Shown piece by piece: positions 1,883-51,130 of a DNA stretch of 64,000 bases. Source of the DNA: Patescibacteria group bacterium (GTDB taxonomy: Bacteria > Patescibacteriota > Microgenomatia > Levybacterales > UBA12049); the NCBI GenBank assembly GCA_023484045.1, contig JAMDAA010000018.1, forward strand, positions 4-64,003, read 5' to 3'. Under the pieces are notes generated by a model. That model made no database searches. It had not been told where the DNA came from and saw only the letters and a list, made by a program, of their open reading frames with translations. The translations under genes and the position numbers were made by a program. Numbering within the stretch: the first letter of the stretch is position 1; each line of letters begins with the position of its first letter.

Positions 1883-1885
1883 AAT

Positions 1886-2221: not shown

Positions 2222-2761
2222 GTGTTCGATCAAAATTTTAATTCCGATTCCGATTAAAATTATCCCGCCGATAATTTCTGTCTTATCTTCGGACACGGAT
2301 GAAAGTTTTTCACCCAGCCAAAAGCCGATAAAACAAAGCAAAAAAGTTACAAAACCGATCACGGAAACCGATATTAAAAGCGGAACTTTTAAAAATTCAA
2401 GGGTTATTCCGGTAATAAGCGCATCGATACTCGTTGCTAACGACATTAAAAATAACATTTTATAATCCAACAAATTTATTTTTTTCTTATTTTTATTTTT
2501 GACAGAATTATAGATCATCTTTAAACCGACAGAAGAAAGAAGAAAAAAAGCGACCCAATGATCATAAGGTCCGATAAATTTATTTAAGCTCTCACCGATA
2601 AACCAACCGATAAGAGGCATAATAGCCTGAAAAAAACCGAAGAAAAAAGCGATTCTGATAACGTGGTGTATTTTGGGTGACTTTACGGCTGCGCCGCCCG
2701 CGATGCTTAAACTAAACGAATCCATCGAAAGACCGATGGCGATAAAAAATAATGACAACAT
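2213..2761 (-). CDS. mntP: manganese efflux pump MntP family membrane protein
   Basis: N-terminal 'GLSMDSFSLSIAGG' and C-terminal 'IIGGIILIGIGIKIL' match the MntP/YebN duplicated motifs; 6 TM helices. Confidence 0.8.
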   Translation of the reverse strand: MLSLFFIAIGLSMDSFSLSIAGGAAVKSPKIHHVIRIAFFFGFFQAIMPLIGWFIGESLNKFIGPYDHWVAFFLLSSVGLKMIYNSVKNKNKKKINLLDYKMLFLMSLATSIDALITGITLEFLKVPLLISVSVIGFVTFLLCFIGFWLGEKLSSVSEDKTEIIGGIILIGIGIKILIEHLF

Positions 2762-2763
2762 TT

Positions 2764-4071: not shown

Positions 4072-4091
4072 AAAAAAACCTTAAATCCTAT

Positions 4092-5756: not shown

Positions 5757-5774
5757 TAAAGACTATTTCATGCT

Positions 5775-6546: not shown

Positions 6547-6632
6547 ATAAAAGTATTTTTGCTTATAAATCATTGTCTTATTTTTGGTATAATTGGGTAT
6601 AATTGTGTTACCGCTTGAGGCGGTTTTTTATT

Positions 6633-8477
6633 ATGACAGATATACGAAACGTTGCGATTATAGCGCACGTCGACCACGGAAAAACAACGCTCGTCGACGC
6701 GCTTTTAAAGCAATCTAAAACAAAATTACATAAGGACACGACCGAAACGCTCATTATGGATAGTAATGAGCTCGAACAGGAGCGGGGAATTACAATTTTT
6801 TCCAAAAACGCCTCTGTTGTCTGGAATCCTTCGTCCGGCTCAGCCGGATCAGGACAAGTTATAAAGATAAATATTATCGACACTCCGGGTCACGCCGATT
6901 TCGGCGGGGAAGTCGAAAGGGTCTTAAAAATGGCCGACGGATGTCTTTTGTTAATCGACGCTAAAGAAGGACCGATGCCAAGAACCCGGTTTGTTTTGAA
7001 AAAGGCGCTCGAGATGAAACTTAAAATCATCGTCGTTATAAATAAAATTGACCGGCCCGATGCGAGAATTCCTTATGTGTTGGATAAAACCCTCGATTTA
7101 TTTTTTGAACTCGGTGCAGACGACACGACTGCTGATTTTCCGATCGTTTACGCAAGCGCAAAAATGGGAGTCGCCGGTCTTGATGAGAATATAAATGAAA
7201 TGGAAGATATTTCTCCTGTTTTTAACGCTATTATAGAACACATTCCCAGACCCTCCGGAGATATTAATAAACCTTTACAAATGATGGTCGCGTCGATCGG
7301 AAGCGATCTACATAAAGGAAGGATCGCGATCGGACGAATCTACAACGGTAGTATCAAAAACGGGCAGGAAATCATGTATATAAATAGAACCGGACACAGA
7401 GAAAAATACAAATTAACATCTCTAATGACGTATCAGGGACTCGATCGGGTCGAAACACAGGATGCGCCCGTCGGAGATATCGTGGCAGTAACCGGAATTC
7501 CCGATGCGACTATCGGAGAAACAATCGCAGACAGCATAAATCCTATTGCTTTACCCGTTATCGATATCGAGGAACCGACGATGCAGATAAAATTTATCGT
7601 TAATGATTCCCCGTTTGCCGGAAGGGAAGGGGAATTTAAAACCGGAAGAGAAATCAGGGCAAGATTGTATAAAGAACTTGAAACCGATGTCGCGCTAAGA
7701 GTCGAAGACGATACCGAAGGCGGCGGCTGGATCGTCTCGGGCAGGGGAGAATTACACTTGGCAATACTTATCGAAAGACTAAGACGGGAAGGCTATGAGT
7801 TCCAGGTCGGACGGCCAAAAGTTATCGATAAAGCCGTAGGCGGTGAAAAATTGACGCCTTATGAACGCGTGTTTATCGAGGTTCCCGAAGAATTTAGCGG
7901 AATCGTCATGCAGAAAATGGGCGCAAGGCACGCCGAGCTTCAGGATATGAAAGCCGACGGCAGTATTACATATATGGAATTTATCTCCGCGACAAAAACA
8001 TTGTTTGGATACAGAAGCGAATTTACAACCGACACACGGGGCTTGGGAATTATGAATATAAGTTTTTATAAATACGACGTTGATAAAGGTTTTACGAGTC
8101 AAAAAGAACAGGGATCGCTCGTTGCCCACGAATCAGGCGTTACAAATCTCTACGGATTAATAAATACCCAAGGTCGGGGAACTCTTTTTATCGGCCCGGC
8201 TGTTGAAGTTTATAAAGGTGAAGTAATCGGGCAAAACGCGAGAGAAGAAGACATAAAGGTAAACGTGTGTAAAACAAAACAGCTCACCAACAACCGCTCA
8301 AAAGGAGAAGGAGTTTCAGAACATTTTAACACCCCAAAGATCATGGATTTAGAAGACGCACTCGAATACATCGGAGACGATGAGCTGGTCGAAGTTACCC
8401 CAAAAAATATCCGTATCAGAAAAAAAATATTAGACGAGATCGAAGAAAGGAGAAAAAGATCCCAGGGAATCCGATAA
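6633..8477 (+). CDS. typA: translational GTPase TypA/BipA
   Basis: '[17 protein letters not shown]', '[17 protein letters not shown]' and EF-G-like C-terminal domains; start placed at MTDIRN (6633) rather than the ORF-track start. Confidence 0.9.
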
Positions 8478-20011: not shown

Positions 20012-20281
20012 TTACAACTTTTTTAATAGTGCTTTATCTCCTTTAATTAAAGCTTCTTTTTTAGATCGCGACCAACTCTTTAATTGATATTCTCTTTGCA
20101 TTGCTTCTTTTCTTGAATTATAAGTTTCTGAGTAAGCCAATTCAAAAGAGTAAAAATTCCTAATATATTTTGCGGATTTCGAATTTTTAGCTTTATGCTC
20201 TTTCAGTCTTTTCTTTAAATTATTAGTTTGTCCAATATATAAAGTGTTTGAAGAGGTTCGAAGAATATAGACGTAGAACAT
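20012..20281 (-). CDS. GIY-YIG nuclease family protein (small, homing-endonuclease-like), copy 1
   Basis: 'MFYVYILRTSSNTLYIGQTNNLKKRLKEH' GIY-(10)-YIG motif; 89 aa. Confidence 0.8.
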   Translation of the reverse strand: MFYVYILRTSSNTLYIGQTNNLKKRLKEHKAKNSKSAKYIRNFYSFELAYSETYNSRKEAMQREYQLKSWSRSKKEALIKGDKALLKKL

Positions 20282-26054: not shown

Positions 26055-26399
26055 TTATTGGGTACCAAAAGCTGGTTGATTAACTATTATGGCTTTGAAT
26101 GTACCCTTCATTTCGTATTTAGTTCCTTTTTCTACATAACAAACATCACCGACATTTAGTGTAACTTCCTCATTATTGAATACCAAAATTAAATTTCCCT
26201 CAAGAACATAATAAATCCGATTGTAATAAGCTGTCTCTTTTTCGTAATAATCTGTGGCTTCTGTTGTGGCCAAGGAAACATCTTTGGAAATATCTTTAGT
26301 AATAAAGCTTATTGCGATTTTATTGTCGGCAATTTTTCTTATTGTTACCTCGGACTTTCTAACAACTTTAAACATGTTTATAATTTTCTCCTTCCCCAA
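26055..26399 (-). CDS. cupin domain protein
   Basis: 'YYVLEGNLILVFNNEEVTLNVGDVCYVEKGTKYEMKG' cupin motifs. Confidence 0.65.
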   Translation of the reverse strand: MGKEKIINMFKVVRKSEVTIRKIADNKIAISFITKDISKDVSLATTEATDYYEKETAYYNRIYYVLEGNLILVFNNEEVTLNVGDVCYVEKGTKYEMKGTFKAIIVNQPAFGTQ

Positions 26400-26667
26400 G
26401 GGTTCTTTTTAAAGCTTTCTTGAGATTGTCTCTTCCAAACCCGCTTTTTAGAAAAACTTCGCGAGCTTTTGCGTCTTTTTCGTTGATAAAATATTCATAA
26501 TGAACAAGCTTAAGCGGTCTTCTGTTGGCTGTGGAACTTACTTCGCCTCGAGCATGTCTCAAAAGTCGATCTTTTAAATCAGCAGTATAACCAGTGTAAA
26601 ACTTTTTGTCTTTAAGACTAATAAGATTGTACACGTAGTATTTATTATTAGAACGTCTAACGTTCAT
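26368..26667 (-). CDS. GIY-YIG nuclease family protein, copy 3
   Basis: 'YYVYNLISLKDKKFYTGYTADLKDRLLRH' GIY-YIG motif; 99 aa. Confidence 0.75.
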   Translation of the reverse strand: MNVRRSNNKYYVYNLISLKDKKFYTGYTADLKDRLLRHARGEVSSTANRRPLKLVHYEYFINEKDAKAREVFLKSGFGRDNLKKALKRTLGEGENYKHV

Positions 26668-38000: not shown

Positions 38001-38246
38001 ATGTGGTACGTATATGTTTTGAAAAGTATAGTAAATTCGAGATTTTATACAGGATCAACAAATAACTTGGAAAGAAGATTAAAAGAACATAATTCAGGGC
38101 ATAGTAAATATACAAGGTTAACTAAACCTTTTGAAATTATATACCAAGAAACTTACAAAAAGAGACTTGAGGCACGGAGGAGAGAATTATTTTTAAAAAC
38201 TGGTAAGGGAAGAGAGTTATTGAAAAGTTTAATCATGGACTCTTAG
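38001..38246 (+). CDS. GIY-YIG nuclease family protein, copy 2 (embedded between tRNA-Val fragment and intact tRNA-Val)
   Basis: 'MWYVYVLKSIVNSRFYTGSTNNLERRLKEH'; stop codon TAG lies at positions 8-10 of the downstream tRNA. Confidence 0.75.
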   Translation: MWYVYVLKSIVNSRFYTGSTNNLERRLKEHNSGHSKYTRLTKPFEIIYQETYKKRLEARRRELFLKTGKGRELLKSLIMDS

Positions 38247-38310
38247 CTCAGTTGGTTAGAGCGCGTCGTTGACATCGACGAGGTCGCAGGTTCGAATCCT
38301 ACAGAGTCCA
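38237..38310 (+). tRNA. tRNA-Val (anticodon GAC)
   Basis: manual fold: GGACTCT-TA-GCTC-AGTTGGTTA-GAGC-G-CGTCG-TTGACAT-CGACG-AGGTC-GCAGG-TTCGAAT-CCTAC-AGAGTCC-A (one C-A mismatch in T stem). Confidence 0.75.
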
Positions 38311-38377
38311 CTTAGCTAAGTTTGTTAGAGCGGTCGCCTTAGGCGACAGGTCACAAGTTCGACTCTTGTCGAGCCCA
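38311..38377 (+). pseudogene. tRNA-like 3' fragment with degenerate D arm, same aberrant anticodon hairpin, distinct T arm and CGAGCCC-A 3' end
   Basis: 'GTTAGAGCGGTCGCCTTAGGCGACAGGTC' shared with 37951..37979; no matching 5' acceptor strand. Confidence 0.4.
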
Positions 38378-38534: not shown

Positions 38535-38565
38535 TTGACAGTTATTGAAGATCTTAATTTATAAT
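38535..38565 (+). promoter_or_regulatory. sigma70-like promoter (TTGACA ... TATAAT) for the tasA-like/sipW operon
   Basis: TTGACA at 38535..38540, TATAAT at 38560..38565 (19-nt spacer, slightly long). Confidence 0.35.
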
Positions 38566-38671
38566 CTTTGTGCATCTTCTGAAACTGCCCACTCAGAGGA
38601 ATCGTTTCCGAATTAAATTTTAATTATGAGTATACCTGCCCTTAAAATACGCTTGTATTGTAATAAAATCG

Positions 38672-38704
38672 AACCAGCCTCTAGAAAAATGGGCTGGTTT
38701 TTTT
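38672..38704 (+). promoter_or_regulatory. terminator-like hairpin + U-run inside the 5' leader, 25 nt before the tasA-like start (possible attenuator)
   Basis: AACCAGCC-(12 nt)-GGCTGGTT followed by TTTTTTT, then SD 'aggaggtg'. Confidence 0.4.
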
Positions 38705-38729
38705 GATAAAAATATTTAAAAGATAGGAG

Positions 38730-39293
38730 GTGAAAAATAAAATGAATAGAAAAATCGCGATGAGTATGATGTCTATTTTTTCAGTATTAACGCTTATGAG
38801 CGGAGCAGCATACGCAGCTTTTAGCTCGACTGCTTCTAATAATGGTAATACATTTGGAGCCGGAAGTATTTCGCTCACAATCAATGGCTCATCTGGTTCA
38901 GGTTCATCGCCGGTATTTAATGTTCCAGGTGCTGCACCGGGCCAAATATTTACTCAACCAATTATTTTGGCAAATGCTGGTTCTGATGCATCTAATAAGA
39001 CAAAGCTGGTAAATATTAATCATGGAACGGGAACAAGTCCTGATCTAGGAAACAAGCTAACATTACAGATATACGACGACGTGGATGGTAATGGAATACT
39101 TGATGGATCGGATCCGTTAAGAGGAAGTGCACATGTAACAGATGGTGCATGGAGCAATATCGATCTTGGATTTGGATTATCAGCTGGCGGAGCTCACAGA
39201 ATATTCGCAGTAATTACATTTGATAGTGATGCAGACAATACGTATCAAGGAGCGAATTCAAACTTTAATCTAAATTTCGAGACAAGCCAATAA
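38730..39293 (+). CDS. TasA/CalY/camelysin-family secreted protein (peptidase M73-like fibre subunit) with SipW-cognate signal peptide
   Basis: '...LMSGAAYAAFSSTASNNGNTFGAGSISLTINGS...FNVPGAAPGQIFTQPIILANAGS' aligns with B. subtilis TasA 'TWAAFNDIKSKDATFASGTLDLSA...LKPGDKLTKDFQFENNGS'. Confidence 0.7.
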   Translation: MKNKMNRKIAMSMMSIFSVLTLMSGAAYAAFSSTASNNGNTFGAGSISLTINGSSGSGSSPVFNVPGAAPGQIFTQPIILANAGSDASNKTKLVNINHGTGTSPDLGNKLTLQIYDDVDGNGILDGSDPLRGSAHVTDGAWSNIDLGFGLSAGGAHRIFAVITFDSDADNTYQGANSNFNLNFETSQ

Positions 39294-39363
39294 GCATTGA
39301 CAGGAATACCGGTAGCGGGAAATTGCATCCTCTCGTTACCGGTAGAAAAGGAGAATTTAAAAT

Positions 39364-39903
39364 ATGAAAATAATAAAAATAGTTCAAAATATATTAATAG
39401 TATTAGTTCTTGTAATCCTTCCTCTAATATTTTTTATTTTAATAACTTCTAAATGGCCAATTATTTTGGGGATTCGCTCTTACACTGTCTTAACCGGCAG
39501 TATGCAACCTTCTATTCCAATTGGAGCGATTGTGTTCACAAAACCTACTGACTACAAAATAGGCGATATAATCTCGTTTCAAAGAAATAGCATCGTTGTC
39601 ACTCATAGAGTAGTTAATGTTCTAGAAAAACAAAATAATAAAATATCTTATCGAACAAAAGGTGATGCGAATGACTCAAAAGATAGTGAATTAGTTTCAA
39701 ATTCTCTAGTCGTCGGAAAAGTCATGTTTACACTACCTTTTCTAGGCAGATTTATTTCTTATCTAAAAACTGTGCCTGGATTTATAATATTTATTGTTTT
39801 ACCAACTATCATATTTGTTGGATTCGAGTTGTATGAAATTAAAAAAGAATTCGAAAAACAGATCGAGAAAAAACTTCTTAAAAAATTGCAAGGGAATATA
39901 TGA
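39364..39903 (+). CDS. sipW: signal peptidase I, SipW/archaeal type (S26B)
   Basis: 'VLTGSMQPSIPIGAIV' (Ser box), 'HRV', 'TKGDANDSKD' boxes, N- and C-terminal TM helices. Confidence 0.8.
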   Translation: MKIIKIVQNILIVLVLVILPLIFFILITSKWPIILGIRSYTVLTGSMQPSIPIGAIVFTKPTDYKIGDIISFQRNSIVVTHRVVNVLEKQNNKISYRTKGDANDSKDSELVSNSLVVGKVMFTLPFLGRFISYLKTVPGFIIFIVLPTIIFVGFELYEIKKEFEKQIEKKLLKKLQGNI

Positions 39904-40205
39904 AAAAAAGACTTATCGTTTTATTAGGATTAATTATTGTGATCGAAGGACTACTTTCTTACAAAATCACTTATGCATTATTTAAATCATCGGCAAGCAA
40001 TAAAAATAACTCCATCTCTGCCGCAATTAGTTTTCAAACACCAACTCCAACACCAACAGGGACGACGGTTATAATTTCAGGTGATGGCCAAGGGTCGCAA
40101 AATTCGGTCGATGTAATAAATATAAATAATCAAACAACGACTCAGGAAAATAATACGACGACAATAACCGAAATTCAGTCAGTCACAAATACTGATAATA
40201 ATTAA
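39900..40205 (+). CDS. small secreted protein with SipW-cognate signal peptide (TapA-like accessory candidate)
   Basis: 'LLSYKITYALFKSSASN' matches the xTYAxFxD/S cognate signal; Thr/Asn-rich tail. Confidence 0.5.
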   Translation: MKKRLIVLLGLIIVIEGLLSYKITYALFKSSASNKNNSISAAISFQTPTPTPTGTTVIISGDGQGSQNSVDVININNQTTTQENNTTTITEIQSVTNTDNN

Positions 40206-40239
40206 AATGAATTTTACCATGAAAGGAGGTGAATAAAAA

Positions 40240-40839
40240 ATGAATTTAAAGAAAAGAATTGCGGCAGGAATCGTAACAGTTTCCATATTGGCAACCGTAT
40301 TGCCTGCGGCTGTATTCGCTGACACGACCATTAAAATCGATAAAAACGGTAAAAACTCAAAAAATACCGTGACTGTAACAAATAACACCACGTCCAAAAA
40401 AATACAAAAGAATTACTCTCTTGTATTTACCGGTGTGTTGTCTGCAGCCGGAACCGGTGGAAACACAATTGCGGATACAACTGGCGGAACAGGCGACCCT
40501 TCGATCAAAACTGGCAGTGCCACCTCTAAAGTAGATGTAACTGTCGGTGGAAGCTCAAACAAGGGATCTGAAGGCCAATGTCCGTGTGATTTAGGAAAAA
40601 CCGATGTAACCATTTCTGGAAACGGAGACAACTCGACAAATAAAGTTGACGTTAAAAATTCTAGTGGGTCTGTAGTCGTCCAGAAAAACATTTTTACGGT
40701 TGGGACATTAGTCGGTTCGTTCGCGGGAACCGGTGAAAACACGATAAGTGGAACAACAGGAGGCGATTCATCGATTACTTCTGGAAGCGCAAACTCTGAA
40801 GTAACAATAAAAGTTGATGGATCATCTAATAGCTTGTAG
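40240..40839 (+). CDS. secreted Gly/Thr/Asn repeat protein (shares repeat family with the minus-strand giant proteins)
   Basis: signal peptide ending 'AAVFADTTIKI'; repeats 'TGGNTIADTTGGTGDPSIKTGSATSKVDVTV' / 'TGENTISGTTGGDSSITSGSANSEVTIKV'. Confidence 0.6.
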   Translation: MNLKKRIAAGIVTVSILATVLPAAVFADTTIKIDKNGKNSKNTVTVTNNTTSKKIQKNYSLVFTGVLSAAGTGGNTIADTTGGTGDPSIKTGSATSKVDVTVGGSSNKGSEGQCPCDLGKTDVTISGNGDNSTNKVDVKNSSGSVVVQKNIFTVGTLVGSFAGTGENTISGTTGGDSSITSGSANSEVTIKVDGSSNSL

Positions 40840-40862
40840 AACAATCTACTTGCTAAATTTGA

Positions 40863-40907
40863 AAAGCCCTGTTTTCTGGTATACAAAACCCAGAAAGCGG
40901 GGCTTTA
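40863..40907. terminator. bidirectional terminator hairpin between the convergent surface operons
   Basis: long imperfect stem AAGCCCTGTTTTCTGG / CCAGAAAGCGGGGCTT. Confidence 0.45.
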
Positions 40908-40961
40908 GTTATAGAATTCAGAACCTAGAATATAATGTAAAGTAATGTAAAGGTGTAACCT

Positions 40962-41516
40962 TTACATTGGGCGGGCGAAAATGAGGAGACGTTGGAGGGC
41001 TGTGCCGATTGGTGTACAAGTTTGGAGGATTAATTCATTATTTTTGTTTTGGGTAAGATATTTTATATCACCCGGCCAAACGATTTTTTTGTCAAAAACC
41101 GTATACTTATATTCTTTTCCGTCTTTCCTAATAATTACTGAATCGCCGTTATTTAATTCTCCGATCCTTAAAAAAATTGTGTTGTAACGCGTTAGATTCC
41201 ATGGATAATCAGATGAGTGGCCGAAAATATAAATTAATCCTTTTTGTCCCGGATCGACCGTTCCTTTTGCCCTCGCGACACCTTTCTTTAAAACTTCGCG
41301 ATATTCTTTTTCGTTAAACGGATCGACATTTTTGATAATCGGGGAGATGAGTTTAATCTTTGGAATTTCTATGACATAAGATTTACTATCGATTTTAATC
41401 TGGGGCGGGGGCAAAAGATAGGCTGAAATAACCGGATAATAAATAAAAAGAATAATAGTTATCGAAAGGGTTATAAAAATTTCTCCGAGCCGTTTTTTAA
41501 TTTGGATTGATTTCAT
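40962..41516 (-). CDS. sortase family transpeptidase
   Basis: N-terminal TM, catalytic His 'IFGHSS', Cys in 'LILQTCTP' (TLxTC), Arg near C-terminus. Confidence 0.75.
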   Translation of the reverse strand: MKSIQIKKRLGEIFITLSITIILFIYYPVISAYLLPPPQIKIDSKSYVIEIPKIKLISPIIKNVDPFNEKEYREVLKKGVARAKGTVDPGQKGLIYIFGHSSDYPWNLTRYNTIFLRIGELNNGDSVIIRKDGKEYKYTVFDKKIVWPGDIKYLTQNKNNELILQTCTPIGTALQRLLIFARPM

Positions 41517-41587
41517 AATCCGATTTTAACAGAACAGTTAATTTTATTCAAAAAAAATCCTGGCAATGCCAGGACAACAACTTCTAT

Positions 41588-42733
41588 TTACGCTAAAACT
41601 GGAGGAGACACACCAGAGTTAAATCGCAGATACACCCCGGCAAAGAAGAACATTATCGCAAGTATTATTCCAAAAAGCGTCAGGAAATTTCCGGTTGTCG
41701 GAAGACTCGTAACAGATCCCGAAACCGATCCGTTTCCACTGCCGCCTCCACCGATACTTGGTCTTGGATTACCGTCACCGTCTCCCGGTTTTGGTCCCGG
41801 TGGAGGCGGAGGAGGTGGCAGAACAGGAGGTGGATTTTCACCGCCACCTGTGGGTGGAGGCGGAGTTACTTTTTCACAGCAAGTTTTGATTTCCGCTTTT
41901 GATCCATTAATATTCTCGTTTTTAATTGTTACTACGCCAAAAATATTTCCGGTCGCGATTAAAACACTTCCTAAATTTCCGTTTGCCGAGTTACCGCCCG
42001 TGTTTAAATTTTGATAAGCGTTATTTAATATATTCGCGAAATTCGTTTCATTAACTTTAATATTATTTTGGGATAGAAAATTTACATTATTTTGTGAATT
42101 ACTTCCGTTCCCGCCGACAAAAATCGAGAGCGATCCACCCGATCTCTGAGGATCCACATTAATATTAACATTTTTGTTTTCAATACTTGTGACTGCCGTT
42201 ACATTCCCGGTTGTTGTCGAAACGTTTCCGTTATTATCGTTTACAGAATTATTTCCGGTATTAGCGTTTGTAATCACATTGTTAATAATGTTTGCGTAAT
42301 TTGTTTGGTTAATATTTACATTACCTATCACATTTGTAATAACACTATTCGTTGTATCCGAACCGTTATTATTTATTTGAACATTTGTGTTTGTTAGACA
42401 ACACGGATTTTCGGCCGAATTTCGATTTATATTTTGATTATTTATATTCGTCGAAGAGTTTACATTGCCTGCTTGAATATTAGTTTCTGATCCGGTATTT
42501 CCCGACGCCTGATTATTTCCGGTATCGGCATTATTTTGAACATTGTTTTGAATATCTGCCTGATTTGATTGCTGAATGCTTGTATTTTGAGAAACATTAA
42601 CATTAAGCCGAGATTGAGAAGCATCTCCATTCCCCGTAATCGAAAGGTTAATTCCCTCAGCACTTGTCGCGCCAGTAAAACCAAGCACAAAAGGTAAAAT
42701 GATCGATATCGATGCCAATATTTTTCTTAACAT
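41588..42733 (-). CDS. LPXTG-anchored Asn-rich repeat surface protein
   Basis: signal peptide; Asn-rich repeats; Pro-rich stalk 'PPPPTGGGENPPPVLPPPPPPPGPKPG'; C-terminal 'LPTTG' + hydrophobic helix + 'LRFNS' tail. Confidence 0.65.
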   Translation of the reverse strand: MLRKILASISIILPFVLGFTGATSAEGINLSITGNGDASQSRLNVNVSQNTSIQQSNQADIQNNVQNNADTGNNQASGNTGSETNIQAGNVNSSTNINNQNINRNSAENPCCLTNTNVQINNNGSDTTNSVITNVIGNVNINQTNYANIINNVITNANTGNNSVNDNNGNVSTTTGNVTAVTSIENKNVNINVDPQRSGGSLSIFVGGNGSNSQNNVNFLSQNNIKVNETNFANILNNAYQNLNTGGNSANGNLGSVLIATGNIFGVVTIKNENINGSKAEIKTCCEKVTPPPPTGGGENPPPVLPPPPPPPGPKPGDGDGNPRPSIGGGGSGNGSVSGSVTSLPTTGNFLTLFGIILAIMFFFAGVYLRFNSGVSPPVLA

Positions 42734-42788
42734 ACTTTTTATTTATAAACTGCGGCAGAATTTTTCGAAGTGTCCCGCTAAGCGGGAC

Positions 42789-45023
42789 TCAACGGGGCAG
42801 GTTAACATCGCTTTTTAAACGATGTGAAATTTTGAGAAAAGACAATCTTTTTCTAAAAATTACGAATACGATTATCAATGGCAATAATATTAATAACCAT
42901 GCAAGATTTACAGACACTTTTCCGCTTTGTCCACCTACTGTTGTCGACATTCCGAATACACTACTCAAATTTGCGTGATTAGAAACTCCGGCAATTTTCA
43001 CGTCGGCAGTCGTGTATGAATCGCCCAAAGACGAATCGTTGCTGTTTGAACCCGCAACAACCGCTGCTGCTGTCGGAGTAGGCGAAGACGCAGTACCGGA
43101 ATTACCATTATTGTTATTATTATTGTTGTTTGTAGGACTTTGTCCGCCGACCGGATGATTTTCTGGCGCAGATGTTGGATTTTGGGCTAACTTTATGTCA
43201 TCTGCTTTCGGTTGTTTTTCTTGTCCCGGTGTCACAAAATCTCCGAGCCAACTTCCGAAAACATTAACAACCGTCACCATTAATTTTCCGCCTTTTATAT
43301 TGTTGTTAACAAAATTTACGAGGTTTGCGATTACTTTCGCGTCGCCGGTTTTGATCGTCGAATCTCCGCCTGTATTTTTAGACGCATCGTTTCCGCCGGT
43401 ATTTGCCGTTAGGTTAATATTATTGACGACTTTACCCGTGTTTGTCTGAACAGTCGTATTGTTTGTGTTTTGTGAAACATCGGTCGTATTCGTTGAATTA
43501 CTGCCGTTTCCAGAATTTACCGCGGTAATCGTGCCGTCTGCTCCTACTTTAAATTCTGTTCCGTCCGATCCGGCAAAATTACTGCCTGTTGGCGCACCCA
43601 ATAACTTTCCAACCCAGTTTCCTGCTTCATTAACAACCACTAACCACCAATTGACGCCGTCAACATTGCTGTTTGCGATGTTTAAAACATTCGCATCAAC
43701 CGATGTGTTTCCGGTTGTAACAGATGAATTACCATTCGTATTTCCACTGACACTGTTATCTCCCGATATCGCATTAAGAGTTAGGTTATTTTCTATGTTA
43801 GCGTCGTTCTTTTGGAAAGAGTTATTATTTGTTGTCTTGTCATAATTTACAGTATTATCCGAACCCGTTCCGTTTCCTGCATTAGCCAAAGTTGTACTTG
43901 CCCCCGAATTTGCAAATGCCTTGTCAACCTCGCTTTGCGGCAAAATTATGTCGCCGACCAAATTCCCAAAAACATTAACAACTCCGTAAACTACATTTCC
44001 GGCCATATTATTATTAACAAAGTTCAGTACGTTTGCTGCAACATTTGCGTCACCGGTTGTAATCGATGAATTCCCGTCGGTATTTTTAGACGCTGTGTTA
44101 TTTCCGGAGTCGGAAAGAAGCGTCATGTTGTTTCCGACAGTCCCGTCGTTATTTTGAAAAGTCGTGTTATTCGTGTTTTGTGAAAGATTGGCATTATTTG
44201 TGGTATCAGCACCGTTATTTGCGTTTGCGACCATCGCGTTTCCGGATGTTCCACACCCCGAAACACAACTTGCGCCAAAATCCAAAACTATATCGCCGAC
44301 ATGATCGTCTGCGACATTAAATTCAGAAACCGCAACACCCGCAACATTCGTATTTAATCCGGTTATAATCGTACCCGTTGTGTTGGCATTTCCGCTATTA
44401 ATAGTCGAGTCTCCACCTGTATTTTTGGAAGCAGAATTTTGTCCGGATATCGAATCCTGATTAAGATTATTAGAAACTACACCGCTGTTATTTTGAACTA
44501 CAGTACTACCGTCTGTAATATTTGCTGTTCCGTTATTTTCTGACCCAGTTCCATTACTGCTGTTTGCTACCAAAACTCCGCCCGAAACATTGGCCGGATC
44601 AATCGCAGATAAATTACTGTTTCCGAGACTGTTAATAACTCCACTATTTGTTATATCCCCGCTATTAATAGTATTGTCACCGACTTTACCATCTGATGTC
44701 GTCCCGGAAGTCGTAGGAACATTTGTTGCAGTAACTGTTGGGGTCGGAGTCGGATCATCTGAATGATGGCGACGTGGTTTTTCCGTCGGAGTAGGGGTTG
44801 GTGTCGAACTAAGTATTTCATTCAAAGTCGGTGTTGTGGGCGCGGCTGGAACGTCTGGCGCTGTTGGAGCCTGGGGCACATCTGGCGCTGTAGGGGCAGC
44901 AGACGGTACAATCGGCGCATCGGGAGGCGTAGGAATATCAAACGCTCTTACAGGCGGCGCCTGCATTAATAAAAGTACCGCTATCGAAAGTATCGCTAAA
45001 TATTTTTTAATTTTTTTAATCAT
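42789..45023 (-). CDS. giant (744 aa) Asn/Thr/Gly repeat surface protein with Pro/Ala/Thr N-terminal linker and C-terminal TM anchor
   Basis: signal peptide; 'APTAPDVPQAPTAPDVPAAPTTPT' linker; >8 repeats 'SG.N.ASKNTGG.S.I.TG.A.V.AN.LN..N.N..G'; C-terminal 'LLILLPLIIVFVIFRKR'. Confidence 0.65.
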   Translation of the reverse strand: MIKKIKKYLAILSIAVLLLMQAPPVRAFDIPTPPDAPIVPSAAPTAPDVPQAPTAPDVPAAPTTPTLNEILSSTPTPTPTEKPRRHHSDDPTPTPTVTATNVPTTSGTTSDGKVGDNTINSGDITNSGVINSLGNSNLSAIDPANVSGGVLVANSSNGTGSENNGTANITDGSTVVQNNSGVVSNNLNQDSISGQNSASKNTGGDSTINSGNANTTGTIITGLNTNVAGVAVSEFNVADDHVGDIVLDFGASCVSGCGTSGNAMVANANNGADTTNNANLSQNTNNTTFQNNDGTVGNNMTLLSDSGNNTASKNTDGNSSITTGDANVAANVLNFVNNNMAGNVVYGVVNVFGNLVGDIILPQSEVDKAFANSGASTTLANAGNGTGSDNTVNYDKTTNNNSFQKNDANIENNLTLNAISGDNSVSGNTNGNSSVTTGNTSVDANVLNIANSNVDGVNWWLVVVNEAGNWVGKLLGAPTGSNFAGSDGTEFKVGADGTITAVNSGNGSNSTNTTDVSQNTNNTTVQTNTGKVVNNINLTANTGGNDASKNTGGDSTIKTGDAKVIANLVNFVNNNIKGGKLMVTVVNVFGSWLGDFVTPGQEKQPKADDIKLAQNPTSAPENHPVGGQSPTNNNNNNNNGNSGTASSPTPTAAAVVAGSNSNDSSLGDSYTTADVKIAGVSNHANLSSVFGMSTTVGGQSGKVSVNLAWLLILLPLIIVFVIFRKRLSFLKISHRLKSDVNLPR

Positions 45024-45133
45024 GTCTATTTTCCTTTAATTCTTAATTCTGAACTCTAAATTCTAAATTTTTTTCCTGGTGTTTGTAGGGGTTTCGAGGA
45101 AGTGCTCTCGAAACGCCCTACAAACTTACCAAA

Positions 45134-46393
45134 CTAGACTGAAAGACCAAGGCTCAATAATAAATCGTGCAAATTAATAGTTAAATTAACTCCGCCCCAA
45201 TTTAATTCTGGCCAAGTTATTTCGTCTCCAACCTGGTTAACGTTTACAGAATTTTGGATGTCTGTCTTAACGTCTGCATTGCCGGATTCGACTTTTGGAT
45301 CTCCTTTTGGATTTCCAGTATTGTCATCTGCTTCGTTGTTTCCGGTTTTTGCGTCTAAATCGTAAAGATTGTTGTTAAGATAGGCACCATTTGCTTGGAA
45401 AACACCGTCGTCTTGAAGATCTCCAATTTTTCCATCGGATGATAGTGTCGCATCGATTGTGTTATCCGAATCTGTACCGTTTCCTTCGATTGTGGCATTA
45501 ACCTTACCTAGAAGGCATCCGCCGCAATCTATGTCAGCTGCGTTAAAGTTAACTTTATTGTCAACTTTTGCCGTAACATCTGCGTTGCCGCTTTTAATTT
45601 CGACAGCTCCGCCGGTGTTATCATCGGCTTCGTTGTTTCCGGTTTTTGCGTCAACGTTAACATTATTGTCTACGTATGCGCTATTATCCTGAGAAACAAC
45701 TACAGCGCTCGAGTGAGTAAGATCAATCGTATTGTCTGATTCCTCACCGTTACTTATAATGCCGAGGCTCAAATCTCCACCTTTTCCAAGACCATTGCCT
45801 ACTTTTGCAAAATTTGCATTAGCCATTGTCGAAAGCGAGGTATTTACCTTTGCATTTCCGGAGGTGATTTTAACATCTCCGCCTGTATTGTCTTCTGCGC
45901 TGTTATTACCGGTTTTTGCGTCAACATTGACGTCGTTATTAACGTCAGCATTGTTTGTCTGGAAAACAGTCGTTACGTTATTTTTATCAAGATTAACGGT
46001 ATTGTCTGATTCTGTCCCATTTTTCTTGATTTCAACTGTTGTATTTCCAGATGCGCAACAATCAATACTTGCTTGATTGCTGTTAACTTCATTCGTTACG
46101 TTTGCCGTAACATTCGAATTTCCGGATTTTATGGTAACGTTTCCGCCCGTGTTATCATCGGCTGTATTATTACCAGTTTTTGCGTCAACATTAACATTAT
46201 TTGTTATATTGGCGGTGTTGTTTTGTACAACAACTCTTGTCTGGTTCATGGTAACATTCGCGGTATTATTTGTGTCGCTACCGTTTCCGGAAATTTTTAT
46301 TGTCGTATCTGCAAACGCTAATGGCATAAAACCATTAAGCAATAAAGCTCCGGTCGCTATACCTGTTACTAATTTCTTTGTAAATTTTGTCAT
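45134..46393 (-). CDS. secreted Asn-rich repeat protein (419 aa), first gene of minus-strand surface operon
   Basis: signal peptide 'LLLNGFMPLAFADTTIKI'; repeats 'NVNVDAKTGNN.A.DNTGG.V.I.SGNA.V'; paired Cys 'IDCC'/'IDCGGC'. Confidence 0.65.
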   Translation of the reverse strand: MTKFTKKLVTGIATGALLLNGFMPLAFADTTIKISGNGSDTNNTANVTMNQTRVVVQNNTANITNNVNVDAKTGNNTADDNTGGNVTIKSGNSNVTANVTNEVNSNQASIDCCASGNTTVEIKKNGTESDNTVNLDKNNVTTVFQTNNADVNNDVNVDAKTGNNSAEDNTGGDVKITSGNAKVNTSLSTMANANFAKVGNGLGKGGDLSLGIISNGEESDNTIDLTHSSAVVVSQDNSAYVDNNVNVDAKTGNNEADDNTGGAVEIKSGNADVTAKVDNKVNFNAADIDCGGCLLGKVNATIEGNGTDSDNTIDATLSSDGKIGDLQDDGVFQANGAYLNNNLYDLDAKTGNNEADDNTGNPKGDPKVESGNADVKTDIQNSVNVNQVGDEITWPELNWGGVNLTINLHDLLLSLGLSV

Positions 46394-46518
46394 TTATATT
46401 TTCACCTCCCTTCCGATCTGAATTTCCTTCAAAAAATTTTGAAAGATGGCACTTCTTTGCCCCGCTTTAGCGGGACATCTGCCGCATTTTGTTTTTTCTG
46501 CCTAAGCTTGAAAAACAA

Positions 46519-46579
46519 AAAACGGAGGCTCCTTCATTCCATTCTGCAATGCAGAATCGAGTGAAAAAGCCTCCGTTTG
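46519..46579 (-). promoter_or_regulatory. leader terminator-like hairpin (AAACGGAGGCT ... AGCCTCCGTTT + U-run) within ~200-nt 5' UTR of the minus-strand surface operon
   Basis: perfect 11-bp outer stem, inner hairpin TTCTGCATTGCAGAA, followed by TTTTTTGTTTTT on the transcript strand. Confidence 0.4.
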
Positions 46580-46606
46580 CGGTCAGCCTTTTAACTTTGT
46601 AAATAA

Positions 46607-46635
46607 TTTATATAATGTTAAATTTTGTTTGTCAA
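46607..46635 (-). promoter_or_regulatory. sigma70-like promoter (TTGACA-17-TATAAA) for the minus-strand surface operon
   Basis: TTGACA = revcomp of 46630..46635; -10 TATAAA 17 nt downstream. Confidence 0.35.
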
Positions 46636-46691
46636 GGACCAATTTTTAAAAATTGGTCCGCAGACCCGACTTAAATCGCTCTTCGGGTAAG

Positions 46692-46946
46692 TCAAGATTT
46701 CGTTTTAATATTTATTCTATTTCTTATAGTACTTTGAACAATTTGTTGAGCACTCGTCGTCTGAGTTCCTTGTGTTAGGGATTGATCCGTTATCGTGATA
46801 TTTGTTTTTTGAATACTTCTTTTGGAGATCTGAACGACTTTTCCATCCTGGACGTAAATTTCGACACTCCCAAAAATTACACCGTCTAATGCCTTTTCGA
46901 TTTCACCCAAGAGTTTTGAGGAATCCTTCTTCAAAGGGTAACTCAT
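46692..46946 (-). CDS. YezD/DUF2292-family small protein
   Basis: 'GEIEKALDGVIFGSVEIYVQDGKVVQISKRSIQKT' matches the DUF2292 'GSVxIxIQDGKVVQI' core. Confidence 0.5.
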   Translation of the reverse strand: MSYPLKKDSSKLLGEIEKALDGVIFGSVEIYVQDGKVVQISKRSIQKTNITITDQSLTQGTQTTSAQQIVQSTIRNRINIKTKS

Positions 46947-46962: not shown

Positions 46963-47676
46963 TTATATCTTTTTAAGACTGAGTTTTATCGTTTCTTTTT
47001 TACCGTTAATTTCTCCGACCTGCAATGTTAAAGTCTTGTAATTATCGTCGATCGGAAAACCGAGCCTCGTGAGTTTTGTCGAAATCGCCTGGATTTGAAC
47101 CGGGTCGTTATGAATATCAGCCGCGAGCATTTCAGAATTTCCATTAACCGAAAGCCTTACATAATCTTTACTGTTTATTTCGATCGCTTGTTTATAATCG
47201 TTTGTGATTTTTAGATTAACTATAAGAAAAGTTCTGCCTTTAACAGCGTTTGCTTTTTGACCTTTTATTATAATCGCGTCCTGAAGATCTACGCCTTCGA
47301 CAAGGTATTTAATTTTTGTAACCTCATCGCCTTTACTGTTTTTGATCGGGAATAATAATTCTTTATTAATTGTCTGCGATGCCTTAGTCTGAGGAGCTTG
47401 AACTCTTGTGTCGACGTATTTTGTTTTTCCGGCAAATTTTGTTCCCAAAAAGAACACGCCCACCAAAAGCACAATAACAACGATTGCTCCAATGATAATC
47501 GCAATTATTAAATTATCTTTTTTACTCGTTCGTGGATTAAATTCTGGTCTTTTAATATCTGCGACATGTTCGTTTATTGCAGTACTTATTTTATGAGATG
47601 TGTCGCTGACTGCGTCAAAAAATGTCGTAAGAAAAGTAGGTAACAGTGCTGGCATCGATAATATTCTGTCTCTCAT
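46963..47676 (-). CDS. membrane-anchored DUF4352-like (Ig-fold) protein
   Basis: single N-terminal TM; 'RTFLIVNLKITNDYKQAIEINSKDYVRLSVNGNSEMLAAD' pattern typical of DUF4352 lipoprotein domains. Confidence 0.4.
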   Translation of the reverse strand: MRDRILSMPALLPTFLTTFFDAVSDTSHKISTAINEHVADIKRPEFNPRTSKKDNLIIAIIIGAIVVIVLLVGVFFLGTKFAGKTKYVDTRVQAPQTKASQTINKELLFPIKNSKGDEVTKIKYLVEGVDLQDAIIIKGQKANAVKGRTFLIVNLKITNDYKQAIEINSKDYVRLSVNGNSEMLAADIHNDPVQIQAISTKLTRLGFPIDDNYKTLTLQVGEINGKKETIKLSLKKI

Positions 47677-47802: not shown

Positions 47803-49257
47803 ATGAACGTTTTCAAAAAAAATTTCATCAATTTATTGCCTTTTGTTATTGTATTTATAAGTTCTTTATACGTTCCGACCGACGCGGATTTAGGATGGCA
47901 TTTAAAATATGGGGAACACTTTTTTAAAACCGGAAAAATTCTGCGTGATAATATTTTTTCAACACAGATGGCCAATTATAAGTGGGTAAATCACTCTTGG
48001 GGAACAGATCTAATTTCGTATTCTATCTTTAATAATTTTGGCTTTCTTGGCTTAACGATTTTAGGAGCGTTAATTGTAACTTTAACTTTTTATTTCTTTT
48101 CGAAAGCGTATAAATTATCGCTTTGGAATAAAACTCTAATTTTCCCTTTGATGCTGTATTTCGTGAACCCGGTAAACTTAATATCGTTTAGATCACAACT
48201 TATCTCAATTCTTTTTACCGGTATTCTGTTTTTCGTTTTATCTAAGCAGGATGAAAACAAAAAATATCTATATTTCCTGCCGCTGATTTTTCTGACTTGG
48301 GCCAATTTGCATGGCGGATTCATTATCGGATTTGCGATATACGCTCTTTGGGTTTTTATCAAAGTAGCAATAGGAATAATTTTAAAAAATAAAGATTTTA
48401 AACGGGAAATATTTTTTTTATTGAGCATTCTTATATTAAGCATAATTGCGTGTTTAATAAATCCGTTCGGAATCGGCGTATTTAAAGAGTCATTTAATCA
48501 TTTTGGAAATCCGGCGTTAAAATATATTATGGAATGGACAAGTTTTGAAGATTTTTCCGATCTTTGGTGGAATCAAATAATAATTATAAATTTGATATTA
48601 ATCGGAACAATTTTTATGTTTTTCAGCGGGAAAATTAGGCAAAATTTACCGTTTATAATTATCGCAATCATCCTTTTTTTAATGTCTTTTACAGAAAGAA
48701 GATACGCGTGGACTGCCTATTATTCGATAATCGTTTTTATTAAGCCGGTCGCAGATTTTTTTAAACCCGACAGTAAAAAATACACAAATTTAGCATCTAC
48801 AATAATTTTAGGAATAACTTTAATCATTGTTATTTTCATAAAAAGTCCGTTTGATCAATATTCGACAATGTCATGGGACAGATATTGTAAGGATTATATT
48901 GGATGTTCTTCAAAATCAGCTGAATTTTTACAAAATTATAAATACGATAAAGAAAAATTATTAACGCTCTACAATTGGGGAGGATGGCTTATCTGGAATT
49001 ACCCAGAAATTAAACCAACGGTCGACGGAAGAATGACGTTGTGGAAAGGAGAAAACGGATATAGTGGATTTTTAGATTATTATTCTTACGAACAAAACTG
49101 GAAAGACATCAATAAGTCGAAATACAACATCGTTTATGTTTCACCTTATAAATCGATTTATAATCGGCTAATTCAATTAACTAAAGAAAAAAAATGGAAA
49201 TTAGTTTACAAAGATAAATATTCCGGAATTTTTGTGAGGAATTCTGTTACGGATTGA
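47803..49257 (+). CDS. polytopic membrane protein, possible GT-C glycosyltransferase/oligosaccharyl-transferase-like
   Basis: ~12 TM helices; N-terminal loop 'DADLGWHLKYGEHFFKTGKILRDNIFS'; no secure family. Confidence 0.4.
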   Translation: MNVFKKNFINLLPFVIVFISSLYVPTDADLGWHLKYGEHFFKTGKILRDNIFSTQMANYKWVNHSWGTDLISYSIFNNFGFLGLTILGALIVTLTFYFFSKAYKLSLWNKTLIFPLMLYFVNPVNLISFRSQLISILFTGILFFVLSKQDENKKYLYFLPLIFLTWANLHGGFIIGFAIYALWVFIKVAIGIILKNKDFKREIFFLLSILILSIIACLINPFGIGVFKESFNHFGNPALKYIMEWTSFEDFSDLWWNQIIIINLILIGTIFMFFSGKIRQNLPFIIIAIILFLMSFTERRYAWTAYYSIIVFIKPVADFFKPDSKKYTNLASTIILGITLIIVIFIKSPFDQYSTMSWDRYCKDYIGCSSKSAEFLQNYKYDKEKLLTLYNWGGWLIWNYPEIKPTVDGRMTLWKGENGYSGFLDYYSYEQNWKDINKSKYNIVYVSPYKSIYNRLIQLTKEKKWKLVYKDKYSGIFVRNSVTD

Positions 49258-49783: not shown

Positions 49784-51130
49784 CTATTGACATGAAGAGT
49801 TATTGGGGATGTATTTACACCACCATGGTTTTGGTGTAGAAGTCGGTTCTGGTGTCAAATTTGCAGATTGCGTAGAAACTGGTGTCGGAGTTATCGTTGG
49901 GGCAGGAGTCGATGTGGGTGTAGGACTTGGTGTTGGCGTCGGAGTTAAAGTCGGCGTTGGACTAATTAAACTACAATCAACCGCTCTACATGCATTAATC
50001 CTTCCGTATGTCCAATACTTTCCGGTCCCTAAAACCTTATCTGTTGTAGACTCGATTTTATTTCTGACTTGGGAATTAGTCCAGTTAGTATGCAAACCAA
50101 AAACAAGACCTGCAAGACCCGAAACAAAAGGTGCTGCCATCGAGGTTCCCGAAAGATACGTGTAATCACCCTTATAAGTTGAAACTATCGAAACTCCGGG
50201 CGCTGCAACATCAACCCATAAACCATAATTCGAAAAACTCGCTTTGCTATCGTTTTGATCAGTCGCGGCTGTAGCAATTATGTTTGAATAATACGCCGGA
50301 TAAAATCTTTGTTTGCTGTTATTGTTGCCCGCTGCCGCAACAACCACAACTCCCTTATTCCATGCATAATTTACTGCATCTTGTAAAGTCCTTGAAGATG
50401 ATGTTCCCCCCAAACTCAGATTTATTACTTTTGCATTATTATCTGCCGCCCAAATAATCCCATTGGCAACCCATGAATAATATCCGCTACCCGTGTTGTC
50501 GAGTACTTTTACCGAAAGAAGTCGAGTATCGTATCCTACTCCCGCAACTCCCAAACTATTGTTCGTAATACTGGCCGTAATTCCGGCAACGTGAGTTCCG
50601 TGTCCGTCTCCATCGATATCAGGATCAGATGTAAAATTGGCGCGGCCGGCGATTTTTGTGGACAGATCAGGATGAACCGAATCTATTCCCGTATCAACAA
50701 TGGCGACGTTGATTGTTGAAAGCCCGTGCGTCGAATTCCAAGCATACTCTGCCTGGATTTTTTTTAAACCCCATTGATTTGGATAATAAGGATCGTTTGG
50801 GGTCTCGAGTTTTGTTGCGACAAAATCGGGTTCTGCATATTCGACAATATTGCTTTGGATGAATTTATTAGCAAATTCATAAGATCGTCCTTCTGGTATC
50901 TTTACTACAAGCGCATCAGTAAGTTTTAACCGTTCTTCTTTAAACGCGCCAAAACTTTTTATGAGAGTATTTTGTAGATTCTCAGGTGTAGCGGGACGAA
51001 ACTTTACAATGATCCTGTCTGGTTTTAATACTGCTTTAAAAGAGGATGAGGCAGAGAAAACCGGAGACTTTATAATAAACAACAAAATCGGTAATAAAAG
51101 TATTGCGAGAAGAAAGAAAAACCTTTTCAC
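49784..51130 (-). CDS. subtilisin-like serine protease (peptidase S8) with Pro/Thr linker and C-terminal Cys pair
   Basis: 'VAIVDTGID' (Asp), 'HGTHVAG' (His), 'GTSMAAPFVSG' (Ser); C-terminal 'TPTPTPSPTPTSTPAPTITPTP...CKYIPNNSSC'. Confidence 0.85.
   Translation of the reverse strand: MKRFFFLLAILLLPILLFIIKSPVFSASSSFKAVLKPDRIIVKFRPATPENLQNTLIKSFGAFKEERLKLTDALVVKIPEGRSYEFANKFIQSNIVEYAEPDFVATKLETPNDPYYPNQWGLKKIQAEYAWNSTHGLSTINVAIVDTGIDSVHPDLSTKIAGRANFTSDPDIDGDGHGTHVAGITASITNNSLGVAGVGYDTRLLSVKVLDNTGSGYYSWVANGIIWAADNNAKVINLSLGGTSSSRTLQDAVNYAWNKGVVVVAAAGNNNSKQRFYPAYYSNIIATAATDQNDSKASFSNYGLWVDVAAPGVSIVSTYKGDYTYLSGTSMAAPFVSGLAGLVFGLHTNWTNSQVRNKIESTTDKVLGTGKYWTYGRINACRAVDCSLISPTPTLTPTPTPSPTPTSTPAPTITPTPVSTQSANLTPEPTSTPKPWWCKYIPNNSSCQ

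Follow-up and report, generated by a model that had tools for sequence, protein, structure and literature searches.

A locus in which a TasA-type fibre operon converges on a sortase operon raises the question of whether the two serve a single cell-surface apparatus. We examined this locus in a 64-kb stretch of DNA (64,000 nucleotides, hereafter the window) from a metagenome-assembled genome (MAG) of the Microgenomates (locus tags M1268_023xx), within the Patescibacteria or Candidate Phyla Radiation (CPR), in agreement with the CPR-type host that had been supposed from the letters alone. Plus-strand genes are called A, B, C and D, and minus-strand genes E, F, G, H, I and J. The original prediction had listed eight open reading frames (ORFs), all of which were found where it placed them and on the same strands, and had read them as a dedicated apparatus combining both machineries. 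Its observation is confirmed and its combined-apparatus reading partly supported: the identities of the components and their adjacency hold, whereas the sortase cluster is present across the lineage and the TasA module in only some of the loci. We favour, with about an even chance of being right, two adjacent surface modules, one a wall- and membrane-anchored coat or fibril of repeat proteins and the other an optional TasA fibre.

Synteny of the repeat cluster and the TasA module

The minus-strand unit consists of six genes in the order J-I-H-G-F-E (47676-40962). It had been described as an operon of three repeat proteins and a sortase; those genes exist, but the unit starts two genes upstream of the boundary first drawn and reaches 47676. 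In the public annotation, the genes at 38730, 39364, 40962 and 46692 are a 'CalY family protein', 'signal peptidase I', 'sortase' and 'YezD family protein', and the repeat proteins (D, F, G and H) as well as J are 'hypothetical'. Using a profile built from a 12-sequence alignment, we scanned one genome per GTDB species for relatives of H; 148 stretches matched and 80 loci were fetched, over which synteny was determined by phmmer with the window proteins. Related loci carry the labels L001-L098, with taxa given only where stated.

Conservation of the gene set in relatives had been named beforehand as a check, and J-I-H-G-F-E proved collinear in ~80 Microgenomates genomes, nearly every locus with enough flank, so the outcome set in advance as refuting the original reading did not occur. 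Informative record titles of cluster loci name Levy-, Davies-, Gottesman-, Woese-, Roizman-, Chisholm-, Ames- and Curtissbacteria. TasA and SipW are present in 8 of the 42 H-anchored loci that contain a sortase and at least 4 kb past it; a convergent D-like gene past the sortase is found in 23 of 42, mostly without the TasA module. Viewed from TasA, genes for the Asn/Gly/Thr-rich unit that we call the NG repeat lie nearby in four of six loci (L003, L004, L087, L088), and the TasA operons of L005 and L086 have no repeat gene within 10 kb. The 8 of 42 count and the TasA operons that stand without a cluster indicate two separable modules, not one machine. The repeat cluster is near-universal in the lineage, and the TasA module is an accessory found preferentially beside it. 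The convergent layout of the window recurs in L001, L003, L011, L042, L062, L077, L087, L091 and L096, and other placements of TasA are divergent upstream (L078) and co-directional upstream (L083).

The wider neighbourhood is of the housekeeping type, flanked by trigger factor and DUF5660 at one end and by thrS at the other. L002 shares part of it, which fits vertical inheritance. L002 (Gottesmanbacteria) also has a second sortase and a 1,840-aa SpaA-domain protein (1266-8296) just upstream of J-I-H-G-F-E; a SpaA gene with its own sortase indicates that a separate classical pilus-type locus coexists there with the repeat cluster.

Proteins of the two modules

Proteins D, F, G and H contain two, three, four and four copies of one ~88-aa Asn/Gly/Thr-rich unit, with the consensus I.I.GNG..S.N.v.v.....v.Q.N.A.v.N.v...A.TGNN.A..NTGG.v.I.SGNA.v...v.N.vN.N. 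The thirteen units share 35-59% identity in the alignment, and a hidden Markov model (HMM) of the unit detects every copy at E=1e-18 to 1e-30, its only other match in the window being a weak one in C. Searched against 1.84 billion proteins, the repeat profile returned 3,473 representatives at 50% identity (E<=1e-3), with 2,326 at E<=1e-10. Neither the repeat proteins nor the profile gave a meaningful match in Pfam, NCBIfam, PHROGs or PDB sequences; a weak Fe-S_biosyn match on H was judged to be chance. The family, suggested earlier to be new, is a genuine common repeat for which Pfam and NCBIfam hold no curated model, and 'giant', as its members had been called, overstates proteins of which the largest has 744 aa. 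Column autocorrelation of the repeat gives periods of 88-90 and of 2, the latter corresponding to beta-strand alternation. A curli-like 22-residue sub-repeat appears only as a weak bump (autocorrelation 0.066 vs 0.33 at 90) and is not claimed. With moderate confidence, structure modelling points to NG-repeat units that are all-beta, solenoid-like modules.

All four repeat proteins have ordinary AxA-type signal peptides, and they differ in how they end. F (41588-42733, minus strand, 381 aa) consists of a signal peptide, three NG repeats, a Pro-rich stalk and a C-terminus made of SLPTTG, NFLTLFGIILAIMFFFAGVY and LRFNSGVSPPVLA, with a hydrophobic stretch of ~20 residues, YLRF... and a single Arg in the tail. 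In ~40 of 57 F orthologs, LP(A/V/I/T)TG is followed by a transmembrane (TM) segment and YLR(L/F)RSGRSP, and a short-form subgroup has GLSxT(S/A)G-like variants. The LPTTG, TM segment and basic tail attributed to F are thus visible and conserved in orthologs, although the Pfam model PF00746 Gram_pos_anchor stays sub-threshold (13.9 bits, cutoff 20) and the tail is reduced to one Arg here. As far as its sequence tells, F carries the tripartite LPXTG sorting signal of motif, hydrophobic segment and charged tail, and it has the only clear LPXTG-type C-terminus, and is the only clear sortase substrate, among the ORFs of the window. G (42789-45023, minus strand, 744 aa) begins with a signal peptide and a Pro-rich, APTAP-like region, followed by four NG repeats, each extended by a hydrophobic VVNVFG.W.GD segment, and then by a low-complexity spacer. 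Its C-terminus, (I/V)NLAW with a TM segment and a basic tail and without LPXTG, is kept in orthologs, as is the Pro-rich N-terminus.

H (45134-46393, minus strand, 419 aa) has four NG repeats, with conserved pairs of Cys between them, and ends in an acidic/aromatic amphipathic tail that contains neither a TM segment nor an anchor. D (40240-40839, plus strand, 199 aa) is a small protein of two repeats, with E~8e-25 for each unit. The signals of H (LAFA↓DTTIKI) and D (AVFA↓DTTIKI; arrows here and below mark cleavage sites) leave mature proteins that both begin DTTIKI. D had been described as a secreted repeat protein, which it is, with the correction that its repeats belong to the same family as those of the minus-strand proteins. 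The three anchoring states, LPXTG in F, a TM helix in G and a free end in H, are each kept in orthologs; repeat number and architecture vary between lineages, which include ~190-aa F forms, a 1,046-aa G and a 637-aa LPATG form.

Gene E (40962-41516, minus strand) encodes the predicted sortase, a 184-aa protein with an N-terminal TM segment, the catalytic-type His in IFGHSS, Cys in LILQTCTP and Arg 9 residues past the Cys. It matches PF04203 Sortase at 83.4 bits (cutoff 26.6), and the motif LILQTC.P.GT...RLL is kept in 60 of 61 orthologs. Its scores for NCBIfam classes C, D, E and F (60.8, 60.4, 38.1 and 24.5 bits) all lie below the respective cutoffs of 160, 165, 160 and 166, and its best PDB relatives are class C sortases, at E=1e-5. 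The first two genes of the cluster encode proteins of other kinds. J (46963-47676, minus strand, 237 aa) is a single-pass membrane protein with a weak DUF4352-like extracellular domain (16.9 bits, below cutoff) and a match to phrog_806 (E=3.9e-8), and its position is kept in ~80 loci. I (46692-46946, minus strand, 84 aa) is a small YezD/DUF2292 protein (PF10055, 41.8 bits vs 22) without a signal peptide, which lies immediately upstream of H in ~70 loci. PDB searches with I and J returned nothing.

In the TasA module, A (38730-39293, plus strand) was expected to be a TasA/camelysin-like subunit, and it matches PF12389 Peptidase_M73 at 41.2 bits (cutoff 22.5) over residues 5-93, its N-terminal half only; the domain is present in 31 of 31 homologs of A. 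The start of this 187-aa ORF needs revision: the public record and orthologs point to ATG 38742 as the likely true start, which gives 183 aa. A profile of 24 A homologs finds B. subtilis TasA (5of1/8aur) as its best PDB match, at E=0.0045, with archaeal AbpX next, and aligns to the N-terminal region of TasA and to its C-terminal NxYQGxSxxFxFxFxAxQ strand. The AlphaFold2 (AF2) model of A has a predicted local distance difference test score (pLDDT) of 80.4 and a predicted template-modelling score (pTM) of 0.74, the N-terminal 60 residues being low (pLDDT 51-69). In Foldseek, this model retrieves the TasA fibre 8aur first (E=1.2e-5, probability 1.0, TM-score 0.56) and a Sulfolobus donor-strand filament second. 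A is predicted from these models to have a jelly-roll fold like the TasA fibre subunit, C-terminal strand included. Donor-strand exchange is the assembly mode of TasA (PMC9674648, PMC10151520), and the low-pLDDT N-terminus of A would be compatible with, though no proof of, a strand that needs a partner.

B (39364-39903, plus strand) encodes the SipW-type enzyme anticipated at this position, an archaeal/ER-type signal peptidase I with TM segments at its N- and C-terminus, Ser46 in GSMQP, His81 in THRV, and GDAND; the motifs GSMQP, THRV and GDAN are kept in all orthologs. It scores 86.5 bits with TIGR02228 (cutoff 51.85). The Bacillus equivalog models stay below cutoff for both proteins, at 17.5 bits vs 450 for A with the TasA model NF046066 and at 103.8 bits vs 190 for B with the SipW model NF046067, the latter over residues 5-171 and thus near full length. 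A and B are therefore divergent family members and not orthologs; on this sequence evidence A is to be placed in the TasA/CalY family without being a TasA ortholog.

C (39900-40205, plus strand, 101 aa) has a start codon that overlaps the B stop (ATGA) and consists of a signal/donor-strand motif, a Pro/Thr linker and about half an NG repeat. The signals of A (SGAAYA↓AFSSTASNNGNTFGAG, with SipW cleavage predicted at AAYA↓AFSS) and of C (YKITYA↓LFKSSASNKNNSISAA) had been proposed to be of one TasA type. Such a common signal is present and kept in both ortholog families, which by inspection share ...(T/A)(Y/F)A↓x F (S) x x x S x x N x (F/I) x A; C orthologs read ...SYK.TYA↓LFSS.A.S..N.F.A, then a Pro/Thr linker. 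The motif aligns with the TasA signal, GTWA↓AFNDIKSKDATFASG. An NCBIfam scan of the A and C N-termini gave no TIGR04088 match at E<=0.1, short-motif models being easily filtered and the presence of this model in the scan unconfirmed. A P2' Phe is reported to make TasA dependent on SipW (PMC10269814).

C orthologs are 211-282 aa long, with a common N-terminal motif and a variable C-terminal part, which is an LTD domain in most relatives, another domain in L086 and absent in L087 (a 107-aa short form). In the window, residues 55-101 (47 residues) match positions 2-48 of the NG-repeat profile at E=2.9e-4 with high composition bias. An RTX (HemolysinCabind) gene lies 3' of C in L001, L003, L004 and L088 and is absent in the window; the half NG repeat in place of the LTD and the missing RTX gene look like a deletion or fusion remnant. 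By its sequence C looks like a short member of a TapA-like family, reduced in form here, and by analogy it may initiate donor-strand assembly or serve as an anchor (PMC10151520). As a whole, the TasA module adds a new member to a known family: its subunit is already annotated publicly, and PF12389 proteins have been reported in Patescibacteria (PMC9245690). The leader of A contains a hairpin with a U-run (AACCAGCC...GGCTGGTTTTTTT; 38672-38704, plus strand, as read from the sequence), then a ribosome-binding site (RBS), GGAGGTG; the hairpin resembles the second one in the box-containing TasA leaders of L091.

The conserved leader of H

Between I and H lies a leader (46394-46640, minus strand) with a near-consensus promoter, TTGACA (46635-46630) and TATAAA (46612-46607) separated by a 17-nt spacer. 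This is followed by the sequence CTGACCGCAAACGGAGG (46586-46570), an exact match to an element that we call the box, CUGACCGCAAACGGAGG, and by a 20-bp terminator-type hairpin with a U-run that ends in GCCTCCGTTTTTT, found with the covariance model R1 (match 46591-46513). A GAAGTGC box (46455-46449) and the strong RBS of H, GGGAGGTGA, complete the leader; all of these elements are on the minus strand. The promoter-box-hairpin arrangement is present upstream of H in most loci, ~100-250 nt from the H homolog (L001-L088). In upstream regions of H the box occurs in 65 of 78 and GAAGTG in 46 of 78 (background 0.04), the latter ~50-65 nt before the H start codon, and a recognisable promoter ends 4-58 nt before the box in 21 other loci.

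An alignment of 52 leaders contains a 20-bp stem in which 14 of the 20 pairs, in the upper part, show double compensatory changes. At the base of the stem, 8 bp (ACGGAGGC/GCCUCCGU) do not vary, and a single-stranded GCUGACCGCAA tail is also kept, an invariance that arises partly by construction, the regular expression used to collect leaders having demanded ACCG...CGGA and CCGTTT; independently of this, 47 of 88 loci contain the strict 14-mer GACCGYAAACGGAG. With R1 the window leader scores 74.1 bits, within the range of 40-77 bits obtained upstream of H in ~60 loci; copies also lie upstream of D-like genes in L002, L056 and L009. An Rfam cmscan of the H leader gave no family, only chance microRNA hairpins at E~0.9. 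With a covarying hairpin and U-run between promoter and start codon, the H leader has the make-up of an intrinsic-terminator (attenuator) type element.

In a variant leader the box leads into AAAUAUGA and an AU-rich stretch, and the terminator differs; this form stands before a TasA-like gene (L006), a D-like gene (L067) and a GIY-YIG insert (L085). A metagenome scan for this variant gave nine CPR-type matches, before TasA-like genes in L091, L092, L096 and L097, D-like genes in L090 and L098, GIY-YIG inserts in L093 and L095, and a gene for another secreted protein in L094. The box with <=2 mismatches also precedes TasA-like genes in L062 and L075. The box therefore marks surface-protein genes of both modules in relatives, which suggests co-regulation. 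The box overlaps the H terminator, whose 5' strand is made up of the 3' part of the box; the CGG there can also pair with a CCG lying upstream. The leader probably acts as an attenuator whose box would be read by a sequence-specific factor, and factor-dependent attenuation of H may be suspected from this overlap. Small ORFs past the box in variant leaders are not conserved as peptides, and a leader-peptide reading was dropped. In L036, L044, L059, L060, L074 and L081, the I-H gap contains tandem hairpin-terminators, of which the first keeps the box and the second the AACGGA...UCCGUUUU stem, suggesting duplication of the leader element.

Proposed assembly, known systems and neighbouring features

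The anchoring states suggest how the repeat proteins could be arranged. Sortase E, encoded alongside, would cleave F at LPTTG and join it to the cell wall through the Pro-rich stalk of F, and G would be held in the membrane by its conserved C-terminal helix. On these wall- and membrane-fixed bases, the unanchored H and D, H having the strongest promoter and a presumably regulated leader, would assemble via repeat-to-repeat contacts into a surface coat or short fibrils. In the TasA module, the aromatic-P2' signals of A and C would be cut by the dedicated SipW-type peptidase B, after which A would polymerise through exchange of donor strands, a process that C may initiate or anchor. A bolder extension, possible though doubtful, is that J-I-H-G-F-E together with D forms the main proteinaceous surface structure of Microgenomates, switched with TasA fibres by a new, lineage-specific leader RNA that a factor, possibly I or J, would read.

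H, G, F and D could instead be separate adhesins or wall proteins, for attachment or as an S-layer-like sheet, with no ordered co-assembly and clustered because of duplication and a common sortase. The variable repeat number and architecture would suit this, whereas the strict gene order and three anchoring modes across divergent lineages argue for complementary roles, and H and D, without an anchor or known wall-binding domain, would need a partner to stay on the cell; we consider this reading rather unlikely. It is also unlikely that one filament or attachment organelle requires both the TasA fibres and the sortase/repeat proteins, as it would if, for instance, C, D and the repeat proteins tethered a TasA fibre to the wall. 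Such integration gains from the nine loci with a convergent layout, from the adjacency kept in L078 and L083, from the box leader common to H, D-like and TasA-like genes in L006, L062, L075, L091, L092 and L096, and from the half NG repeat at the end of the window C. Against it stand the low count of TasA/SipW in H-anchored loci, the repeat-free surroundings of the L005 and L086 operons, and the C orthologs, which normally carry LTD or other domains and not NG repeats; the repeat match of C itself is weak and composition-biased.

A classical sortase-polymerised pilus of the Gram-positive type, with repeat proteins linked head to tail, is highly improbable, since F alone has a sorting signal while H, G and D lack LPXTG. 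Class C pilus sortases are among the best PDB and NCBIfam relatives of E, and in relatives such as L002 a giant SpaA-type protein occurs separately, together with a sortase of its own. E nevertheless falls far below the class C cutoff, the cluster has a single sortase, and a Pfam scan found no SpaA or pilin domain in any repeat protein.

Several observations also weigh against the favoured model of a repeat-protein coat or fibril beside an optional TasA fibre. Single-sequence phmmer detected no sortase after G in roughly 14 loci whose flank was long enough, so that J-I-H-G is the most constant core and F-E is less constant. Many cluster loci (L007, L009, L014, L017, L022 and others) are titled 'uncultured Gammaproteobacteria' and are Third Party Annotation (TPA) MAGs; for loci with such placeholder titles taxonomy rests on gene content only, and the titles are no evidence of the cluster in Proteobacteria. 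A curli-like solenoid should show a 22-residue sub-period, which is weak here, the H model has a moderate pLDDT of 72.7 and the other four models 48-61, and Foldseek of the H model against PDB gave no significant global match, with FapC and CsgA ranking top. Interaction or polymerisation of H, G, F and D is something that we infer. For the leader, the box could be a DNA operator instead of an RNA element, and no box within 3 mismatches precedes A in the window, which has only a degenerate look-alike near 38587, so that the co-regulation is seen in relatives only.

Known systems offer partial parallels. The TasA module resembles the biofilm fibre operons tapA-sipW-tasA of B. subtilis and sipW-tasA-calY of B. 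cereus and the archaeal bundling pili AbpA/AbpB in its PF12389 subunit with an A↓AF-type signal, a dedicated archaeal-type signal peptidase within the operon, a second protein with the same signal (TapA-like) and a predicted jelly-roll closest to the TasA fibre. It differs in its order A-B-C, in a shorter subunit of 183 aa that is not a TasA ortholog, in its CPR host and in the accessory protein, which has an LTD and is followed by an RTX protein in relatives and is a 101-aa stub here. In Streptomyces, long sortase-anchored chaplins (ChpA-C) with LPXTG/LAXTG signals occur with short secreted ones (ChpD-H). The logic is alike, in that among paralogs with one beta-rich domain in common some are sortase-fixed and others secreted to co-assemble, but there is no sequence or fold relation: here ~88-aa repeats with Cys pairs form large folded proteins, G is an additional membrane-anchored member, and assembly is a prediction. 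Curli (CsgA/CsgB) share the logic of an anchored nucleator and a secreted major subunit. Curli, Fap and the beta-solenoid adhesins Ag43 and UpaB nonetheless lack a significant sequence or global fold match; unlike curli and Fap, this monoderm-like host has no outer-membrane secretion machinery here, and the NG repeat is four times longer than the curli repeat, with a weak 22-residue sub-period.

Sortase A/housekeeping anchoring is matched by the sorting signal of F and an adjoining sortase with His/Cys/Arg motifs, whereas E fits none of the curated classes C-F and some F orthologs have the GLSxT(S/A)G-like variants. Leader elements of surface and biofilm operons include RAT/PRD antiterminators, EAR of the eps operon and ops/JUMPStart. 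Like these, the box is a short invariant 5'-leader sequence of long surface operons, but its sequence is unrelated, it has no Rfam match and it overlaps the 5' strand of the terminator.

A protein-family survey found sortase to be nearly universal in Microgenomates and most of the families enriched in them to be hypothetical membrane or surface proteins (PMC6744442). In the searchable literature we found no description of the cluster, the NG-repeat family or the leader, and we place the finding within the known kind of sortase-dependent surface assembly, here built from an undescribed repeat family with an undescribed leader element. Microgenomates make up a very large uncultivated part of the CPR, and their attachment to hosts or substrates is believed to involve the cell surface. 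The near-universal sortase gains a conserved substrate and partner set, a large repeat family without a curated model is now defined, and the assembly model is testable. In the conserved leader we see a candidate for a new cis-regulatory RNA, and with it comes a first hint that Microgenomates have a surface-protein regulon.

Further features of the locus concern transcription. A terminator-like hairpin with U7 (41557-41575) between F and E and a promoter-like site 3' of it (41551-41523), both on the minus strand and both pattern matches only, may keep sortase expression below that of the structural genes. The convergent gap between D and E (40863-40969) contains two strong hairpins (40863-40906 and 40943-40969; minimum free energy -45.2 kcal/mol, z=-6.3 vs shuffles) that are likely terminators of both transcription units. 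Promoter and terminator scans across the locus gave counts not above shuffles, so individual sites are suggestions only, unless conserved.

Divergent from J, a 484-aa polytopic membrane protein (47803-49257, plus strand) has no family match and adjoins the cluster in ~14 Levybacteria-like loci (best E=1e-174); it may serve the envelope or the glycosylation of the Ser/Thr/Asn-rich proteins. A subtilisin/mycosin-like S8 serine protease (49784-51130, minus strand), encoded two genes past the cluster, scores 219 bits with TIGR03921, below cutoff. Upstream of A, a partial tRNA-like remnant (38313-38369, plus strand; Rfam tRNA 31 bits over model positions 8-63 of 71, no ARAGORN call) lies directly 3' of an intact tRNA-Val(GAC) (38237-38311) and may be a relic of rearrangement or integration. 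Three small GIY-YIG ORFs abut tRNA genes at 38001-38246 (plus strand, Val), 20012-20281 (minus strand, Gln) and 26368-26667 (minus strand, Gly), and in L085 (19008-19265), L093 and L095 a GIY-YIG gene lies between the box leader and the downstream gene. This placement at tRNAs and box leaders suggests a mobile homing-endonuclease-like element aimed at such sites.

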